Notes under the pieces: model-generated
Told to the model about the DNA's origin: nothing
Seen by the model: only the letters and a program-made list of their open reading frames with translations
The model's database searches: none
In this document: piece after piece, positions 34,899-41,010 of the stretch
Position numbering within the stretch: the stretch's first letter is position 1
Layout: each line of letters begins with the position of its first letter
Program-made: the position numbers and the translations under genes
From: an uncultured Pseudomonadota bacterium
GTDB lineage: Bacteria > Pseudomonadota > Alphaproteobacteria > Rs-D84
Length of the DNA stretch: 64,000 nucleotides
Direction: 5' to 3'
NCBI GenBank assembly: GCA_900321105.1
Contig: OOHL01000002.1
Span: forward strand, 141,656 to 205,655

Positions 34899-35816
34899 AT
34901 GAATAATTGGTACCAGATGCACGAACAAAGTGCCGGCAAATATCGCCTGGAAATATTATGGTGGATATATAAAATCTGCGGCATACGTATTTTGAAAATC
35001 GTTTTATATCCCATTGTCACAATTATATCATTATTTGCACGTGGTGCACGAACCTATTCATGCCAATATCGCAATATATTGAATACATATCAGCGCAAAC
35101 ATAATCTGCCCGAAACCCAATTTTCATCACTTTTACATATCTATGAATTTGCAGCGGCGGCTGTTGATAAAATGTCTGCATCATGCGATAAACATCGCAA
35201 GATTAAGTTTTCAGTATTAAACAATGCCGATTGGGCGGCATTTAATGAATATCTGAAATCAAATACAGGTGTATTTTTAATATGTTCACATTTGGGAAAT
35301 ATAGAGGCCCTTTCTGCGTTCCCAGGTGGCAAAGGCAAAAAAATGCATGCATTTATGCAGGTATCACAAACCGGGACTTTTCATCAATTTATGGTGCGAC
35401 ATAATATCGCGACAAATACAACAATTTATCCCACAGAATCCATAGGTATCGAAACCGCGGCACAAATGTATGACAATTTGCAAAACGGCGATTTGGTTAT
35501 GATGGCGGGCGACCGCACATCCCCGAACAGTCCGGACAGATTTGAAACGGTTAATTTTCTGGACCACGAATGCAATTTCCCAATTGGCACATTTAAATTT
35601 GCACGCGCGCAATCACATCCGATATTTGCAATATGTTTAATGCACATAAAACACGAACGTTATGCCATTTATGTTCATCAGATAAAATCAGCGACAATCC
35701 ATGAAATGATCGGCGAATATGCGCGTTTTCTGGAAAAATTAGTCTTAAAATATCCGAAACAATGGTTTAATTTCTTTAATTTCTTTGAAACGACAGAAAA
35801 AACAGCACAAAATTAA
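34899..35816 (+). CDS. LpxL/LpxP-type acyltransferase (ApeJ C-terminal-like)
   Basis: SHLGNIE, AGDR, PKQWFNFFNFF. Confidence 0.82.
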   Translation: MNNWYQMHEQSAGKYRLEILWWIYKICGIRILKIVLYPIVTIISLFARGARTYSCQYRNILNTYQRKHNLPETQFSSLLHIYEFAAAAVDKMSASCDKHRKIKFSVLNNADWAAFNEYLKSNTGVFLICSHLGNIEALSAFPGGKGKKMHAFMQVSQTGTFHQFMVRHNIATNTTIYPTESIGIETAAQMYDNLQNGDLVMMAGDRTSPNSPDRFETVNFLDHECNFPIGTFKFARAQSHPIFAICLMHIKHERYAIYVHQIKSATIHEMIGEYARFLEKLVLKYPKQWFNFFNFFETTEKTAQN

Positions 35817-35881
35817 AAAAAACTTGATTTTCGGTAAAATATAACATACAATGCCCGAAGTAATTAAAAAAGGCAATAAAA

Positions 35882-36061
35882 ATGGCATCTAAAAAAGGTT
35901 CTAAAGAAGTTGTAAAACTGGAAAACAAGGAAACCGGTTTTTATTACACAACAACAAAAAACACAAAATCTGAAAATACCCAGGGTAAAATGAAATTCCG
36001 TAAATACGATCCAAAATTACGTAAACACGTTGTATTTACCGAAGCAAAAATGAGCCACTAG
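35882..36061 (+). CDS. rpmG: 50S ribosomal protein L33
   Basis: Translated by hand (absent from ORF track): MASKKG..TGFYYTTTKN..KFRKYDPKLRKHVVFTEAK. Confidence 0.93.
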   Translation: MASKKGSKEVVKLENKETGFYYTTTKNTKSENTQGKMKFRKYDPKLRKHVVFTEAKMSH

Positions 36062-36204
36062 GGTTTTCATAATACAGTTTAAAAAAAAAAACACCCGCAA
36101 TTGCGGGTGTTTTTTAATCTCGGGTGCAGTCTAATTCTCCCCTGTGTGTGGGGGGGGGCGGAACGCCGGGGTGGTCTTTCCAAGTATTTGTATTCTCTTA
36201 CCAC

Positions 36205-36238
36205 CTCCCCCTGCGGGGACTCCTCCAAAGGAGGAGAA
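36205..36238. repeat. GC-rich REP-like palindromic element, copy 1
   Basis: ctccccctgcggggactcctccaaaggaggagaa; 32/34 identical to 36825-36858. Confidence 0.75.
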
Positions 36239-36247
36239 ATTTTAATT

Positions 36248-36274
36248 CCCGACACCACTTGCCGTGGTGTCGGG
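36248..36274 (-). other. Perfect 11-bp GC-rich hairpin downstream of the putative DGR variable region
   Basis: cccgacaccac-ttgcc-gtggtgtcggg, no U-tail. Confidence 0.65.
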
Positions 36275-36331
36275 CGCATTATCGTGTCACGCCGTGTCAC
36301 GCGTGTTCGTGCCACGGCCCTTGCGCACACA

Positions 36332-36802
36332 TCATTGCGCGACCGAACCGAACAGCCCGCCGCGCAAAGCGGCGTAGTCCCGGACGTAGGCACCGCAGTA
36401 AATCGTACAGTACGAAGCGCAATCCGAAGCACTCCCGTTGTCGTAGCCGAACGCCCAAAGCGAAGACACGGGATGAGTCAATCGACACCAACAATAACGA
36501 CCATATTTTTCGGAACCAACAACAAGATTTGTTTCGCCTTCATTATTTGTGTCCGTTAAACGCGCAACAGTGCCCCCACGGGATTTACCTTGGTTGCTGT
36601 TTAAACATGCACTGATACCATGAACGGTGCCCTGGGCAGACCAGGCCTTCCAGGTTCCCATAGTGTTATCGTATGTATAACTGGTGATACTGACACTGGG
36701 GTCTAAAACAACCGCAACCGTATCATCCGCTGCGCACATAGTGGTCGCGTATGATGACATTGTCATCATTATCGTTAATACACATATAAATATCTTTTTC
36801 AT
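36332..36802 (-). CDS. Secreted Cys-rich protein; putative DGR target (variable region ~36338-36481)
   Basis: Signal peptide; YCWC..W.F..CASYC..YC; 48 consecutive codons near the 3' end have no third-position A and are rich in NNC codons. Confidence 0.75.
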   Translation of the reverse strand: MKKIFICVLTIMMTMSSYATTMCAADDTVAVVLDPSVSITSYTYDNTMGTWKAWSAQGTVHGISACLNSNQGKSRGGTVARLTDTNNEGETNLVVGSEKYGRYCWCRLTHPVSSLWAFGYDNGSASDCASYCTIYCGAYVRDYAALRGGLFGSVAQ

Positions 36803-36824
36803 TTTTTCTTCCTTTTGTTTTATT

Positions 36825-36858
36825 CTCCCCCTGTGGGGACTCCTCCGAAGGAGGAGAA
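36825..36858. repeat. GC-rich REP-like palindromic element, copy 2
   Basis: ctccccctgtggggactcctccgaaggaggagaa. Confidence 0.75.
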
Positions 36859-36861
36859 CCC

Positions 36862-37377
36862 TTACCACACCGATTCAAACACTGCGTGTCTGAATCCAGA
36901 ACTGTTGGTTGCACCTGCCGGTGACAAACTTGAATTATGATTCAATGCCATTGCGTTCGCACATGCAGATGCACATGACGATGCACAACTTGATGATGTG
37001 GTATAATCATGCAAAAACACCCAATATGATGTTATGCCTGTTTCATAGTGATAATTTGTTGTGTCGTCGTCATCATATATCGGCCACATTTCACACCAAC
37101 AATATTGCCCCGCATCGCCTGCATTCGTATATAAATTCGTTTGCGGTGTCGCAAAAGTCCCTGAAATTTCATTACATGCCGCATAGCCTGTTATCGTTTT
37201 ATAATCGTATTCAACCGCCCATTGTTTTTTAGACGCAGTATTCGTCACATTTGCAACGGTGCCATTTACACCCTTTCTTACGACACCAACATACGTGTTC
37301 AATTTTGCACATATTGTGTATGCGTGTGCTGAATATATTCCCATTATCATTATCAAAAATATCATTATGCGTTTCAT
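36862..37377 (-). CDS. Secreted Cys-rich protein, paralog of 36332..36802
   Basis: Signal peptide; G.AAC, YCWC..WVF..CASSCASAC..FR.AVF.SV. Confidence 0.75.
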   Translation of the reverse strand: MKRIMIFLIMIMGIYSAHAYTICAKLNTYVGVVRKGVNGTVANVTNTASKKQWAVEYDYKTITGYAACNEISGTFATPQTNLYTNAGDAGQYCWCEMWPIYDDDDTTNYHYETGITSYWVFLHDYTTSSSCASSCASACANAMALNHNSSLSPAGATNSSGFRHAVFESVW

Positions 37378-37488
37378 TGTTGTTCCTTCCTTTGTTTTTT
37401 ATCTCGGGCGCGGTGATGTTGGGCGGAACTTATAAGGTTCTTCCACCAGGGCAATTTTTTATAAAATTACTTCTTTCTTTTTCATCCT

Positions 37489-38403
37489 TTATTTCACCGT
37501 ATGGTATGTTGTGTTGTTATACTTTATATTTATCGCATCATCTGATGCACCGCTGACCAAATTCACATAACATACATTATTACCAACCTGTATATTCAAC
37601 GATGGCGTGATTTGTTTTTCTGAATACATTGGGAATATCAAGCCAGTTGATGTCCGTAATGTGGTATGTTCACCAGGACATATCGCGGCACATGTTCCGA
37701 TATCTGTATAATTTAATCCACCTGTGCATAATATCCCACATATTGCATCATCGGTATTTTCATCACATTGCTGATTTAAAAGAAATGTTTGATATCCACT
37801 GGCGCACGAACCATTTGTCAATGTTGCCATTGTGTTAGAATTTAACAAGATGTCTTGATAATTCGTTGGACAATCACCCGCAGAATATGTAGAACACGAA
37901 CCATTATTAACCTGAAACCCGTTATCGCAAAGTGTGACTTCTGCGCCCATTACGAAGCCATTATATACAGGATACACATCTTCTGGCATTTCTTTGGCAC
38001 TGTATCCACCTATTTTACATAACCCGTTATCCAAAGCCATAAAAGAAGATGAATTTAATTCCAAATTATCATCGTCTTGCTGACATGTGCCCTGGGTATA
38101 TGCAACACACGCACCGTTGTTCGGTGCATAACCTTCGTCACAAAGCGTGACCGCCGTTCCCATAACAAAACCATTATAAACCGCAACAACATCATCTGGA
38201 ATTTCCAATAATGCATAGCCACCAATTTTACACAAACCACCTTCAACCGCCATAAATGTTGATTCTGAAAAATCGGTATATTGTGTATCTATGTGTTTTT
38301 CAACACCCAATGTTGCATACCCAGATGGACAAGATGAAGAAAATCCAGCATTTACGTAAATAAATACCGATAACATAATAAAAAACTTGTAACCCCGTAT
38401 CAT
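37489..38403 (-). CDS. Secreted Cys-rich tandem-repeat protein
   Basis: Repeats of FMA...GLCKIGGY...VYNGFVMG..VTLCD; C-terminal KQITPSLNIQVG domain; SD GGGGG before ATG 38403. Confidence 0.72.
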   Translation of the reverse strand: MIRGYKFFIMLSVFIYVNAGFSSSCPSGYATLGVEKHIDTQYTDFSESTFMAVEGGLCKIGGYALLEIPDDVVAVYNGFVMGTAVTLCDEGYAPNNGACVAYTQGTCQQDDDNLELNSSSFMALDNGLCKIGGYSAKEMPEDVYPVYNGFVMGAEVTLCDNGFQVNNGSCSTYSAGDCPTNYQDILLNSNTMATLTNGSCASGYQTFLLNQQCDENTDDAICGILCTGGLNYTDIGTCAAICPGEHTTLRTSTGLIFPMYSEKQITPSLNIQVGNNVCYVNLVSGASDDAINIKYNNTTYHTVK

Positions 38404-38424
38404 TTGTCCCCCTGGCGTGTTTGC

Positions 38425-38601
38425 CAAAATAACCGCCAAAACAACAAAGGCGGTTGGAGGTTAAGAACAATTTAAAGACGAAATTGCACCGTTTATTCAA
38501 TATATTCACAGTCCTCCAACCAATCGTTGGAGATTCTTTTACGTCTTTTTCGACGGTCTTCAAATAGGTTCTTAAGCCTAATCAACAAAACCCTTGCTGA
38601 C
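38425..38601 (-). ncRNA. Unrecognised structured cis-regulatory leader RNA, copy 2
   Basis: Homolog of 6882-7060 with covarying helices, identical GAATATATTGAATAA loop and terminator aaccgcc/ggcggtt. Confidence 0.75.
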
Positions 38602-38673
38602 ACAGCAATTTTATAACAAATAAGTATTTAATTACAAGTAAAAAAATACCCGCATTTTGCGGGGAAACATAAA

Positions 38674-40911
38674 TTATTTTCCGAATTTACCACTGCGTGG
38701 AAAGCCTACTGGTATTGTATGACCCTGGGATGCACGTTTCGCCAACCATGGTTTAATATCATCCAATTTTGTTGTTCCGCGGCCCGTTGTCCATCCAAAT
38801 CCATCCACCATATTAAAGAACATAGCATCAATAGTATATGTGCGTTCAGCGTTATATTTTTGTAATATTACACCCTTGCCACGTGTCATTTCTGGGATTT
38901 GGTTTGCTTCAAATATCAGCAATTTATCGTTTGAGCCCGACAATGCAACCATATCACCATCAACGCGCACACATAATACCGCCGGATTTTTATCATCAAC
39001 GTTCATAATCTGTTTACCGTTTTTGGTTTGTGCAACACAATTTTCACCGGCAACGATAAATCCTGTTCCGTGTCTTCCCACAACCAGATATTTCGCGTTT
39101 GTATCCAATACGAACGCTTTTACAATCGTTTCTTCGGCACTGATGTCTGCCATCATACGCACTGATTCACCAAAACCACGTGCCGATGGCAAATCGTTTC
39201 CAGATAATGTGAACATTTTACCGCCACTTGCAAACAAATTGATTTTATCGGTTGTTTGTGCGTGAAACGCGAATTGTAATTCATCACCTTCCTTGAATTT
39301 CATATCAAGGTTGTTCAAATCCAAGTGACCCTTGGCCGCGCGTATCCATCCCATTGTGGACAACACGACAGTAATAGGTTCTTTTTCTATAAATTCATCC
39401 GCATTAACAACGATTTCTTCACCGACTGGCACCCATTGAGTGCGACGGCGCCCCAGTGCTGTTGTTTTTGCATACTGTTTTTTAATATCATCAAACCAGG
39501 CGTGCAATTGTGCATTTTGAATTTCTTCGCTGTTCAACAATGCCTGTAATTTATCTTTTTCTGCACGCAATTCTTTGTCTTCGCGTTTGATTTCCATTTC
39601 TTCCAATTTACGCAAAGAACGCAAACGTGTATTCAATATCGATTCAACCTGAATTTCAGTCAGTTTGAATTCATCCATCAATACAGCCTTTGGATCATCT
39701 TCGTTACGGATTATTTCAATAACGCGATCCAAATTCAAATAAACTATCAATAATCCGCCCAAAATCTCCAATCTGCGTTCTATATTCCCCAGACGCCATT
39801 TAGTGCGACGCAATAAAACATTTTTCTGGTGCGCAATAAATTCACGCAACACATCACCAATTGGCATAACACGTGGTGCGCCTTTTGAATCAACGACATT
39901 GAAATTCATATTGAATTTATATTCCAAATCAGTCATTGCAAACAAATGCGCCATCATTTTATCAATTGGAATATTGCGACTTTTTGGTGTAATAACGATA
40001 CGCACATCGGTCGTTGATTCATCAACAATATCTTCGACCAGTGGCAATTTTTTTGCATCAATTAAATCTGCAATTTGTTCCACTAATTTAGATTTTATAA
40101 TACCGTATGGGATTTCGGTGATAACAACCTGTTCTGCACCACGTTCTAATTTTTCAGTTTCCCATTTTGCACGAATACGAAATGCACCGCGTCCAGTATC
40201 ATAGTTTTTACAAATTGTTGCAAAATCATCAATTAAAACGCCACCAGTTGGGAAATCAGGTCCAACCAATTTTTTCATAATTTGTTCTGTGGTTGCGTCT
40301 TTTTTATCAACAACCAGATTTAACGCATCCATAATTTCAGATACATTATGTGTTGGAATATTCGTTGCCATACCAACCGCAATACCCATACCACCATTGG
40401 CCAATAAATTAGGAAATGCGCCTGGCATAACCGTTGGTTCAACCGTTGTCCCATCAAAATTAGGCATCATGTCAACGCTGTCTTCGTCAATGCCTTCCAT
40501 AATCAGCATTGCTGCCGCCGTCATTTTTGATTCTGTATAACGATATGCAGCCTGGGGATCGCCATCAATATTACCAAAGTTTCCCTGGCCATCAATCAAT
40601 GGATAACGAACCGAAAAATCTTGAGCCAAACGCACCATCGCATCATAAACAGATGAATCACCATGTGGGTGATAATGCCCCAGCACGTCCCCAACAACCG
40701 TTGCGCATTTACGAAAAGCCGCATTTGGCGACAATTTTTGCCGCAACATAGAATACAAAATTCGACGATGCACAGGCTTTAAACCATCCCTTACATCAGG
40801 CAATGCGCGCGCCACAATCGTACTTACCGCGTACGACAAATAACGTTCAGACAATGCATCTGATAATTGTTGACCTGATATATTTTCAACTGTATTTTCG
40901 ACTTTTCTCAT
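38674..40911 (-). CDS. parC: DNA topoisomerase IV subunit A
   Basis: [29 protein letters not shown]; short CTD without a GyrA box; start moved to 40911. Confidence 0.92.
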
Positions 40912-41010
40912 GATTCTTTCCGCTTTTATCAGGTAAAGATTAAAACATTTGAAAAAATAAAACAAGCAAAAAACCGCCATATAGGCGGTTTTTTTGAAAT
41001 TGGACACAAA

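Follow-up and report, generated by a model that had tools for sequence, protein, structure and literature searches.

A cysteine-rich protein gene as probable remote target of a diversity-generating retroelement in a reduced-genome gut alphaproteobacterium

Introduction

Can a gene for a small cysteine-rich protein be diversified by a retroelement that lies elsewhere in the genome? This question is raised by a gene in the 64,000-nucleotide stretch of DNA analyzed here (the window), which is part of a 247-kb contig (C3) in a metagenome-assembled draft genome of 6 contigs and <0.9 Mb (completeness 93.85%, contamination 0.33%). The gene lies between rpmG-like and parC/gyrA-like genes, with neither a template repeat (TR) nor a reverse transcriptase (RT) nearby.

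To our knowledge, targeted protein hypermutation occurs naturally only in adaptive immunity and in diversity-generating retroelements (DGRs), and every DGR variable protein that we know to have been solved so far adopts a C-type lectin fold. The variable repeats (VRs) of DGRs have been divided into the classes CLec1-3, Ig1-2 and UVR1-6 (Wu et al. 2018, PMC5758913), and a later survey described 24 target protein clusters, in which the annotated VR regions are systematically C-type lectin folds (Roux et al. 2021, PMC8144416). Several targets may share one element: the DGR of Treponema denticola serves TvpA together with seven scattered targets, and Wu et al. describe this DGR and other chromosomal ones with remote targets as not phage-associated (PMC5758913). 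We found no mention of Enterousia together with DGRs in the literature searched, and neither "retroelement" nor "reverse transcriptase" occurs as a word in the mSphere 2025 paper on these genomes.

Results

The 3′ end of the gene has an unusual composition. Codons 108-155 (36481-36338) contain no third-position A (0/48), compared with 25 of the 107 remaining codons. The longest A-free run of this kind among the 543 other ORFs of at least 200 aa in the same genome spanned 27 codons; third-position A has a genome-wide frequency of 0.34, and the probability of 48 such codons from a fixed start is about 2e-9. G+C content reaches 0.62-0.68 across 36250-36450, compared with 0.37 for the window, and adenine makes up 10% of the 130-nt VR compared with 29% of the remainder of the gene. 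The original prediction had started from the 48 consecutive codons at 36338-36481, the abrupt rise in G+C and the exclusive use of TAC for tyrosine. All three features are present, with TAC at five of five Tyr codons in the tract. The features of the locus are collected in Table 1.

Table 1. Features of the target locus (positions in the window)
Feature	Position	Strand	Description
Probable remote DGR target gene	36332..36802	(-)	156 aa: signal-peptide-like N-terminus, Cys-rich beta region, C-terminal variable region
Predicted export signal	36743..36802	(-)	approximately residues 1-20, MKK + hydrophobic stretch + ..SYA, by eye
VR2	36339..36468	(-)	130 nt, residues 112-155 of 156; gap-free match to TR on contig C6
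IMH-like VR 3′ end	36339..36368	(-)	A-free, G+C-rich; final 30 nt identical to TR
Conserved post-stop block	36217..36325	(-)	common to both targets, absent from TR; candidate target-recognition region
First imperfect hairpin after VR	36291..36318	(-)	10 pairs, one mismatch, 6-nt loop, 20 nt past VR end
Perfect G+C-rich hairpin	36248..36274	(-)	11 bp, loop GGCAA (5 nt), 64 nt past VR end
Short hairpin repeat unit	36205..36238	(-)	ctcctcc-ttt-ggaggag plus neighbour; 4 copies at <=4 mismatches
Terminator-like stem	36086..36115	(-)	13-bp stem + T run; closes three-gene cassette
Non-diversified paralog	36862..37377	(-)	171 aa, same Cys-rich domain, VR absent
First cassette gene	37489..38439	(-)	larger Cys-rich exported protein

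A whole-genome DNA search located the TR, also 130 nt long, at C6:135681-135810 (of 223769), adjoining the only RT of the genome. The TR/VR sequence occurs in three copies only: the TR, a cis variable repeat (VR1), and VR2 in the target gene, at 177994-178123 (of 247018) on contig C3. VR2 differs from the TR at 16 positions, 15 of which are TR adenines. Counted over the TR, 15 of 28 A but only 1 of 102 non-A positions are altered in VR2 (Fisher p 3e-11), the sole non-adenine change being C to T at index 67. The last mismatch falls at VR index 99, and no IMH/IMH* difference within the repeat was visible in the VR2-TR alignment. VR1 shows the same pattern, with 13 of its 14 mismatches at adenines. 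In the part that precedes the VR, the two target genes agree at only 48 of 105 residues (46%) and have 57% nucleotide identity, yet VR1 and VR2 each match the TR at 101 of 102 non-A positions; the TR has therefore been copied over both repeats, long after divergence of the two genes. The near-copy that was expected elsewhere in the genome, differing almost only at adenines, thus exists, and its position upstream of a DGR-clade RT on another contig supports diversification in trans.

The TR contains twelve AAY codons and four codons with a single A that can be rewritten, which corresponds to a theoretical diversity of about 3e16 proteins (15^12 x 4^4, by hand arithmetic on the TR codon table). 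Across 120 family members, columns at the TR A-containing codons had a mean entropy of 2.88 bits (16 columns), compared with 1.10 bits for the other 26 (Mann-Whitney p 8e-7). If C3 and C6 share one replicon, the minimum path from VR2 to the TR over the contig ends is 68,895 + 87,959 = 156,854 nt (hand arithmetic). At a minimum of ~157 kb on that assumption, VR2 is a remote target by the >100 kb criterion of Wu et al. 2018.

The element on C6 is ordered as cis target (VR1), 130-nt TR, approximately 400 nt of non-coding DNA, a gene for a 108-aa protein that we refer to as the helper, and the RT. The closest solved relative of the RT is 8ub7_A, which we take to be the BPP-1 RT (E 2e-48 over residues 2-318), followed by a retron-type RT (E 3e-18); against PHROG 1423 the RT scored E 2.7e-99. 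The motifs IGNLTSQ and Y[CS]DD were retained in 12 of 12 related RTs, and (I/L)GxxxSQ is a mark of DGR RTs. One component that had been expected beside the TR and RT, Avd, was absent: nothing in the genome exceeded the PF05635 cut-off, and the best candidate reached 14.2 bits and contained 2 stops. Avd was reported in 74% of DGRs and is hence not obligatory (PMC5758913). Its absence here suggests that the biochemistry may differ from that of the prototype.

The helper, encoded directly upstream of the RT, is conserved and is predicted to form a beta-barrel with one helix. It matched no family in Pfam or NCBIfam, and its profile matched no PDB sequence. Foldseek of the helper model returned nothing at E <= 0.001, with HIN-200, RPA, Teb1 and SSB OB-fold domains among the top matches at E 0.05-0.4. 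The predicted strand-strand-strand-helix-strand-strand order suggests that the protein is OB-like. We considered the CH1 accessory class of Wu et al. and rejected it: CH1 proteins are acidic and 160-169 aa long, whereas the helper has 108 aa and, counted by hand from its residues, a net charge of about +3. A homologue is encoded by the archaeal virus ANMV-1 (KP703175.1; 41.6% identity over 82% of the helper, E 4e-12).

Both VRs are followed by the same downstream DNA. Apart from one 10-nt indel, the post-stop block of the two targets agrees in all 99 aligned columns. A DNA fold of 36190-36345 that includes the first imperfect hairpin gave z = -6.7, and a shorter version of this hairpin forms past the cis VR. 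Further downstream, the perfect 11-bp hairpin that the original prediction had placed after the stop codon is present as well, and its 27-mer has two occurrences in the genome at <=3 mismatches, one after each VR, each with 0 mismatches. It is a candidate DGR-type hairpin: it is confined to the two VRs, but its distance of 64 nt and its 5-nt loop depart from the phage form, described as a 7-10 bp stem with a 4-nt GRNA loop at 4-34 bp from the VR (Guo et al. 2011, PMC3240598). Among related loci (66 surveyed, 15 excluded, mostly as partial matches), 31 of 51 carried a perfect stem of >=8 bp within ~190 nt downstream; the stem sequences differ, and several resemble plain terminators. The hairpin block may have a role in target recognition.

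The target gene belongs to a three-gene cassette. The original prediction had used the adjacent paralog as an internal control, and it proved to be a real but distant paralog with ordinary codons, of which 22 of the final 60 end in A. It aligns with the target at BLASTP E 7e-10 (31% over 111 residues), the alignment stopping at the YCWC motif; the family profile recognizes it at E 4.1e-14, and the whole-genome DNA search found no match to the TR in it. The first cassette gene matched no Pfam family above cut-off, and at its 3′ end it is 89% identical in nucleotides to the corresponding gene of the cis cassette. Both cassettes are mosaic duplicates of each other; their several near-identical patches include 91 nt at 100% and 113 nt at 93%. 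All 4 copies of the short hairpin repeat unit are confined to the two Cys-rich gene cassettes, and the unit is also present 3′ of the non-VR paralog, at 36825-36859; it probably lies outside the DGR. An Rfam scan of 35500-39000 identified no RNA family and gave only sub-threshold leader/terminator-type matches, at the cassette terminator.

We compared the target protein and its AlphaFold model (mean pLDDT 84) with known families and folds. The target is the top match of its family profile within its own genome (E 3.9e-76), and none of its 125 homologues carries a Pfam domain or a name. No family was found for it in Pfam (0 families at E <= 1), NCBIfam or PHROG, and it matched no phage record; a PDB profile search gave only an unrelated match at E 0.19, and Foldseek against PDB and BFVD returned nothing at E <= 0.001. 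Lectins were absent from the Foldseek matches listed, and the only antibody chains among them had E 0.5-1.1 and TM 0.11-0.17. There were no Ig-family Pfam matches, and for the VR the model predicts mainly helix, with a strand at 113-121 and helices at 125-142 and 144-155. By none of the tests applied does the predicted fold correspond to a C-type lectin, nor does it appear Ig-like; the suggestion of a scaffold unlike either fold therefore holds for the model in the Pfam, NCBIfam, PHROG, PDB and BFVD comparisons.

In the same model, residues 3-18 form a helix with low pLDDT. Nearly invariant cysteines lie in a predicted strand (C104-x-C106) and in a predicted helix (C128-x3-C132-x3-C136). On a helical wheel at 100 degrees per residue, drawn by hand arithmetic, the variable sites occupy 80-220 degrees and the cysteines 200-280 degrees, which would place the variable sites on one face of the predicted helix. 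The domain was also found in giant surface proteins with Listeria-Bacteroides repeats and appears to be a lineage-specific extracellular Cys-rich module.

Related elements share this architecture. A TR-VR pair was found at 9 of 11 related RT-bearing loci, and in 7 of these 9 pairs all mismatches lie at adenines (8/8, 12/12, 9/9, 11/11, 9/9, 13/13 and 13/13). A single TR in a horse-gut MAG has matching targets distributed over 5 contigs, including one with 15/15 adenines.

Four public metagenome runs (X1-X4) were compared as contigs. A 173-nt contig with 0 differences from VR2 is present in both X1 and X2, which come from two studies; this argues against very fast turnover, unless one of these runs is the source sample or the pair is related. 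In the goat-gut run X3, the target gene body is nearly unchanged (2 differences in 371 nt and 1 in 511 nt), and a further contig, bearing a VR, has 22 differences over 155 nt and equals neither VR of the genome; it could represent the VR2 or the VR1 locus. Among 15 listed differences of this contig, 13 fall at TR adenine sites by manual mapping. The VR2 flanks and the TR contig co-occur in each of runs X1, X2 and X3. We did not accept the contig "variation" over 36379-36476 as polymorphism, because much of it reflects alignment of the genome's own TR and VR1 to VR2, and stretches left uncovered by X4 were given no weight.

Discussion

We consider it very probable that this gene is a genuine second target of the single DGR of the genome. 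The TR, VRs and RT have the anatomy of such an element, substitutions are adenine-specific, and sequence was transferred into both VRs after the genes diverged; we infer that the DGR also acts on VR2 today. It is unlikely that VR2 is instead a fossil, diversified in the past or duplicated with its VR and no longer hit, with VR1 alone still active. The identical VR2 contig in two runs from different studies, the hairpin 64 nt away with its 5-nt loop and the one non-adenine substitution would all suit such a relic, but 101 of 102 non-A positions remain TR-like while the gene upstream is only 57% identical in nucleotides to the other target, and no change has entered the 30 nt of the A-free 3′ end. 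A fossil would also have to account for a 99-nt downstream block that is the same as at VR1 save one 10-nt indel, for an open gene with its predicted export signal kept, and for the recurrence of several targets per TR in relatives.

Two further explanations dispense with the remote target or with the retroelement itself. If C3, with the target, and C6, with the TR and RT, came from different strains or cells, the target would not be remote, and a 6-contig metagenome-assembled draft does leave contig order and linkage unfixed. We place both loci in one cell because they were binned together at an estimated contamination of 0.33%, and the VR2 flanks accompany the TR contig in all three runs; a binning artefact is thus very improbable, and whatever the bin, the absence of a TR and RT near the target on a 247-kb contig means that a TR in trans is needed. 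We give hardly any credence to an origin without retroelement action, through gene conversion or recent paralog duplication, with the A-poor codons derived from a foreign or G+C-rich source. The mosaic cassettes indicate that recombination between them occurs, but gene conversion would not make 15 of 16 differences coincide with adenines in a third copy that is non-coding, nor would it align the family-wide hypervariable columns with the AAY codons of the TR, and an intact DGR-clade RT adjoins that non-coding copy.

Under the favored reading of a genuine second target, established DGR biology suggests that the TR would be transcribed and that the RT and helper would copy it into cDNA, misreading adenines. 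This cDNA would replace the VR of any gene with a matching A-free 3′ end and downstream recognition block, including the target gene at least ~157 kb from the TR. The product would be an exported protein of ~135 aa, in which Trp, Cys and Gly from A-free codons would keep the fold.

The element resembles the prototype BPP-1 DGR (mtd-VR, avd, TR, brt) in its RT clade, its TR and VR of ~130 nt with adenine-only differences, the position of the VR at the gene 3′ end, the A-free G+C-rich VR 3′ end and the G+C-rich hairpin downstream. Unlike BPP-1, it is chromosomal, has two targets, carries the 108-aa OB-like helper directly upstream of the RT in place of Avd, has YCDD rather than YMDD as catalytic motif and, by the tests applied to the model, appears to diversify a target without the C-type lectin fold. 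Its hairpin also differs: the stem has 11 bp, the loop has 5 nt and the distance to the VR is 64 nt, compared with 8 bp, a 4-nt GRNA loop and <=24 bp as described for BPP-1 (PMC3240598). Like T. denticola and other chromosomal remote-target DGRs, it has one RT and TR serving several genes, some of which lie >100 kb away in the described cases; their targets, however, are reported as FGE-type C-type lectins with HRDC or Avd helpers, whereas the target here is a family-less Cys-rich protein and the helper is neither (PMC5758913). The DGR of the archaeal virus ANMV-1 (Paul et al. 2015, PMC4372165) shares a homologue of the helper beside the RT gene, but there it directly follows the RT gene, whereas it precedes it here; the ANMV-1 target AdtA is described as a C-type lectin-fold protein (PMC5006420). 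As in the VR classes and target clusters described by Wu et al. and Roux et al., the VR occupies the C-terminus, and conserved scaffold residues are interspersed among its variable ones. In contrast to the annotated VRs of Roux et al., it is predicted to comprise one strand and two helices (PMC8144416).

Remote DGR targets are already known, and the unusual parts of this system are its scaffold and its helper. Defensins and scorpion toxins contain a cysteine-stabilized helix motif, in which a strand carries CxC and a helix CxxxC. The arrangement predicted here, C104-x-C106 in a strand and C128-x3-C132-x3-C136 in a helix, may be comparable, except that the chain order is reversed and the domain is much larger. 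We tentatively propose that the Cys-rich module gives DGR-driven massive variation another structural basis, distinct from the C-type lectin fold. It would present about a dozen rewritable residues on one helix face (127, 131, 134, 135, 138, 139, 142) and at the preceding hairpin tip (119-124), with the helix pinned to the beta-sheet by three cysteines at i, i+4 and i+8. It would be served at no fewer than two loci per genome by an Avd-less DGR whose OB-like helper is common to archaeal-virus DGRs. If true, a compact, disulfide-braced domain of ~135 residues with helix-face variability would extend the range of structures known to tolerate hypervariation, and the Cys-rich domain would offer a small scaffold for directed evolution. 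A helper other than Avd is relevant to the mechanism of mutagenic reverse transcription in systems that lack Avd.

Since the module appears to be extracellular and recurs in giant surface proteins, its most likely role in this gut alphaproteobacterium, which has a reduced genome and probably depends on a partner, would be variable binding of a surface ligand. DGR enrichment has been reported in other ultra-small, partner-dependent microbes. The use of one RT at distant loci would parallel that enrichment and, in a genome of <0.9 Mb, represent a notable investment for a reduced-genome gut organism.

A cysteine-rich gene with an unusual 3' end

The 156-aa Cys-rich gene belongs to a three-gene cassette on the minus strand of the window, flanked by a parC/gyrA-like gene and an rpmG-like gene. 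As originally noted, it contains 48 consecutive codons without third-position A: 0/48 in codons 36481-36338, the last 48 before the final Gln codon, versus 25/107 elsewhere in the gene. Third-position A has a frequency of 0.34 in the genome, and among the 543 ORFs that reach 200 aa the longest run without it is 27 codons. The 3' end is also GC-rich, with local G+C up to 0.68 versus 0.37 for the window, and the perfect 11-bp hairpin described after the stop is present. The adjacent 171-aa protein proved to be a distant paralog (E = 7e-10) with ordinary codons, again as claimed. A short hairpin repeat of the ctcctcc-ttt-ggaggag type lies behind both target and paralog; it has four genome copies at ≤4 mismatches, all within two cassettes.

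A template repeat on another contig

We searched the whole 874-kb, six-contig genome with window positions 36240-36520. Short matches at E > 1 aside, this gave three places, of which one was the query and the others lay on contig C6. The original prediction had placed a reverse transcriptase (RT) and a template repeat (TR) elsewhere in the genome, and both lie on C6 in a single locus, L009, together with a second three-gene cassette ending in another 156-aa gene (the cis target) and a 108-aa ORF (the helper).

The TR is the predicted non-coding near-copy differing almost only at adenines, and it contains many AAC and AAT codons. In a gap-free alignment, the variable repeat of the window gene (VR2) shows 16 mismatches to the TR, 15 of them at TR adenines; 15/28 adenines were changed versus 1/102 other bases (Fisher p = 3e-11). 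The variable repeat of the cis target (VR1), likewise gap-free, shows 14 mismatches, 13 at TR adenines. This adenine-confined pattern is the defining signature of the TR of a diversity-generating retroelement (DGR) and its VRs. The sole non-adenine difference between VR2 and TR is a C to T at window 36401 (VR index 67), where a goat-gut run has the TR base. The non-coding gap between TR and helper is the expected site of a structured DGR RNA element.

Features of the window cassette, of locus L009 and of the giant ORFs in the same genome
Feature	Position	Strand	Remark
parC/gyrA-like gene	window 38674..41007		flanks cassette
Cys-rich protein, 316 aa	window 37489..38439	-	cassette gene
Protein, 171 aa	window 36862..37377	-	cassette gene; upstream neighbour of target
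Remote target, 156 aa	window 36332..36802	-	cassette gene
VR2	window 36468-36339 (C3:177994-178123)		on 247,018-nt contig
Perfect 11-bp hairpin	window 36248-36274		after target stop
Short hairpin repeat	window 36205-36238 and 36825-36859		behind target and paralog
13-bp terminator	window 36086-36115	-	closes cassette
rpmG-like gene	window 35882..36061		flanks cassette
Cis target, 156 aa	L009 5903..6373		last gene of second three-gene cassette
TR, 130 nt	L009 6682-6811 (C6:135681-135810)		non-coding; ~330 nt beyond cis target; on 223,769-nt contig
Gap, ~400 nt	L009 6812-7213		no convincing gene; between TR and helper
Helper ORF, 108 aa	L009 7214..7540
RT, 342 aa	L009 7545..8573
Giant ORF, 5093 aa	G000:C5:192108-207386 (L077)		Flg_new repeats and target's Cys-rich domain, no VR
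Giant ORF, 1406 aa	G000:C4:22908-27125 (L076)		Flg_new repeats and target's Cys-rich domain, no VR

Retrohoming into two diverged targets

The target genes are far apart in sequence upstream of their VRs, where they have only 48/105 aligned residues in common and agree at 57% of nucleotides and 48% of third positions. Inside the VR, 101/102 non-adenine positions equal the TR in VR1 and 101/102 in VR2. Duplication or conversion alone could be proposed for the similarity of the two VRs, but it would not yield differences confined to the adenines of a third sequence, the TR. Diverged paralogs whose 3' ends are near-perfect copies of the TR save at its adenines thus argue for repeated mutagenic retrohoming into both targets. 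Even if the nearest ends of the two contigs abut, VR2 and TR would be 156,854 nt apart (hand arithmetic), beyond the 100-kb remote-target criterion stated in Wu et al. 2018 (PMC5758913), provided that both contigs belong to one replicon.

Beyond the stop, past the end of TR homology, 99 aligned nucleotides are the same in both targets, apart from one 10-nt indel. Within this block lies the perfect 11-bp hairpin, a 27-nt sequence with exactly two genome copies, one behind each VR. Since the block is outside TR homology, retrohoming cannot explain its conservation, and it is probably kept as a target-recognition region, as in Bordetella phage, where the IMH and hairpin are described as enough to direct homing (PMC3240598). 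The likeness to phage hairpins is partial: those are reported with 7-10 bp stems, 4-nt GRNA loops and a distance of 4-34 bp from the VR (PMC3240598), whereas the hairpin after VR2, at a distance of 64 nt, combines an 11-bp stem with a GGCAA loop of 5 nt. A second, imperfect hairpin is closer in, 20 nt past the end of VR2.

The two cassettes are mosaic (window 37330-37420 and 36764-36876 versus L009 5392-5482 and 5829-5941). Between the genes and over the signal-peptide codons they show 93-100% identity, whereas divergence of the gene bodies is beyond the reach of blastn. From sequence comparison, this suggests either recombination or a selective constraint on the signals for expression and export.

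The reverse transcriptase and its probable helper

The closest solved relative of the RT was 8ub7_A (E = 2e-48, residues 2-318 aligned), which we take to be the Bordetella phage DGR RT, the search tool naming the entry only "Reverse transcriptase". Retron-type and group II intron RTs ranked after it (~1e-18), and PHROG 1423 matched at 2.7e-99. Two motifs, IGNLTSQ and Y[CS]DD of the catalytic site, were retained in 12/12 related RTs aligned. A genome-wide search found no other RT.

Avd, the usual DGR accessory protein, had been expected beside the RT; instead, no match to its family (PF05635) exceeded the cut-off genome-wide, and the helper occupies that place. The helper showed no match in Pfam, NCBIfam or PDB sequences. 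In its predicted model (pLDDT 85), three strands, one helix and two further strands follow each other as in an OB-like barrel, and a Foldseek search with the model gave no significant rows. None of the four accessory classes outlined in Wu et al. 2018 (PMC5758913) matches the helper. Two viruses have a homologue next to the RT: the archaeal virus ANMV-1, in its DGR (E = 4e-12, 41.6% identity), and a Methanosarcinales virus (E = 3e-17). The protein likely represents a non-Avd DGR helper family.

Distribution among relatives

The target has 125 homologues of similar length at E ≤ 0.001, all of them unnamed and lacking Pfam domains. Profile searching of 1.84 billion cluster representatives identified 1236 matches at E ≤ 0.001, of which 409 reached E ≤ 1e-10, mostly stand-alone proteins of ~150 aa, although some of 4750-6218 aa hold up to six copies. 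Scanning of species genomes yielded 66 loci, each comprising the match plus up to 6 kb either side, in 33 MAGs, all labelled Candidatus Enterousia or uncultured (alpha)proteobacteria and many of ruminant or horse gut. These organisms are described as having genomes below ~1 Mb and lacking the TCA cycle and respiration (PMC12306168).

An RT was present in 11/66 loci, and the helper ORF accompanied it in all 11, directly upstream in 10. We recovered a TR-VR pair in 9/11 RT-bearing loci; all mismatches were at adenines in 7/9, with 13/17 (L074) and 10/14 (L045) in the others. For the RT-bearing loci L022 and L015, the query window used did not recover a pair. In one horse-gut MAG, a single TR matched five targets on five contigs, with adenine mismatches of 13/13, 15/15, 15/21, 15/19 and 13/16. 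The RT is patchy in this family of reduced genomes, occurring in 22/81 searched genomes (own genome included) and 10/18 genera, and in 7/38 other genomes of the same genus.

Possible present-day rewriting

Public runs were compared as assembled contigs only. Two runs from different studies each held a 173-nt contig identical to VR2. In the goat-gut run, the gene body was nearly identical (2/371 and 1/511 differences), while a VR contig showed 22 differences in 155 nt. Of the 15 differences listed, hand mapping assigns 13 to TR adenines and one to a non-A site; the remaining one brings back the TR base. This contig differs from both VR1 and VR2 of the own genome and could belong to either locus. 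These results support diversification within the lineage; for VR2 itself we infer it, and this is the weakest point of the case.

Scaffold of the target

No family was found for the target in Pfam (E ≤ 1), NCBIfam (E ≤ 1) or PHROG (E ≤ 0.1), which gave only two chance-level NCBIfam rows, and its profile returned nothing from PDB sequences but an unrelated match (E = 0.19). We utilized AlphaFold2 to model the target from 42 family members (mean pLDDT 84, pTM 0.73; block means for residues 31-150 of 82-96, ≥91 in all but two). The model places strands within residues 41-121, followed by helices at 125-142 and 144-155, so that the VR would code for the last strand and both helices. A Foldseek search with the model reached E ≤ 0.001 in neither PDB (best 0.3) nor BFVD (best 0.097), and the matches listed included no lectin.

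Among 120 family members, entropy reaches 3.0-3.5 bits at residues 119, 120, 122, 127, 131, 134, 135, 138, 139, 142 and 143, which coincide exactly with the AAC and AAT codons of the own TR, and is near zero at W116, C128, C132 and C136. On a helix wheel at 100 degrees per residue (hand calculation), the variable positions of the helix fall at 80-220 degrees and the three cysteines at 200-280 degrees. On this wheel, the variable residues would line one helix face, the adjacent face being held by cysteines, perhaps to the invariant C104-W-C106 strand through a hypothesized disulfide pairing.

An additional remote target with a predicted different scaffold

Remote DGR targets are already established in Treponema and others, as described in Wu et al. 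2018 (PMC5758913), and as such the window gene is an additional, clean example. The system departs from described DGR kinds in two respects, both of which are predictions as to fold and helper role: it is Avd-less with an OB-like helper, and its VR-bearing domain failed every C-type lectin and Ig test run, in keeping with the original prediction of a scaffold unlike these folds, here judged on a predicted model. We found no paper linking Enterousia with a DGR in the literature searched, and the target family may be listed in supplementary catalogues.

In the TR, 12 AAY codons can each yield 15 residues but never a stop, and four single-A codons can each yield 4 residues, allowing ~3e16 proteins by hand arithmetic. 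Without a VR, the target domain also occurs in the 171-aa neighbour and, in one or two copies each, in two giant ORFs of the own genome whose remaining sequence consists of Flg_new (Listeria-Bacteroides) repeats (E = 6e-158 to 2e-34). These sequence contexts point to an extracellular, surface-associated module with a predicted binding role.
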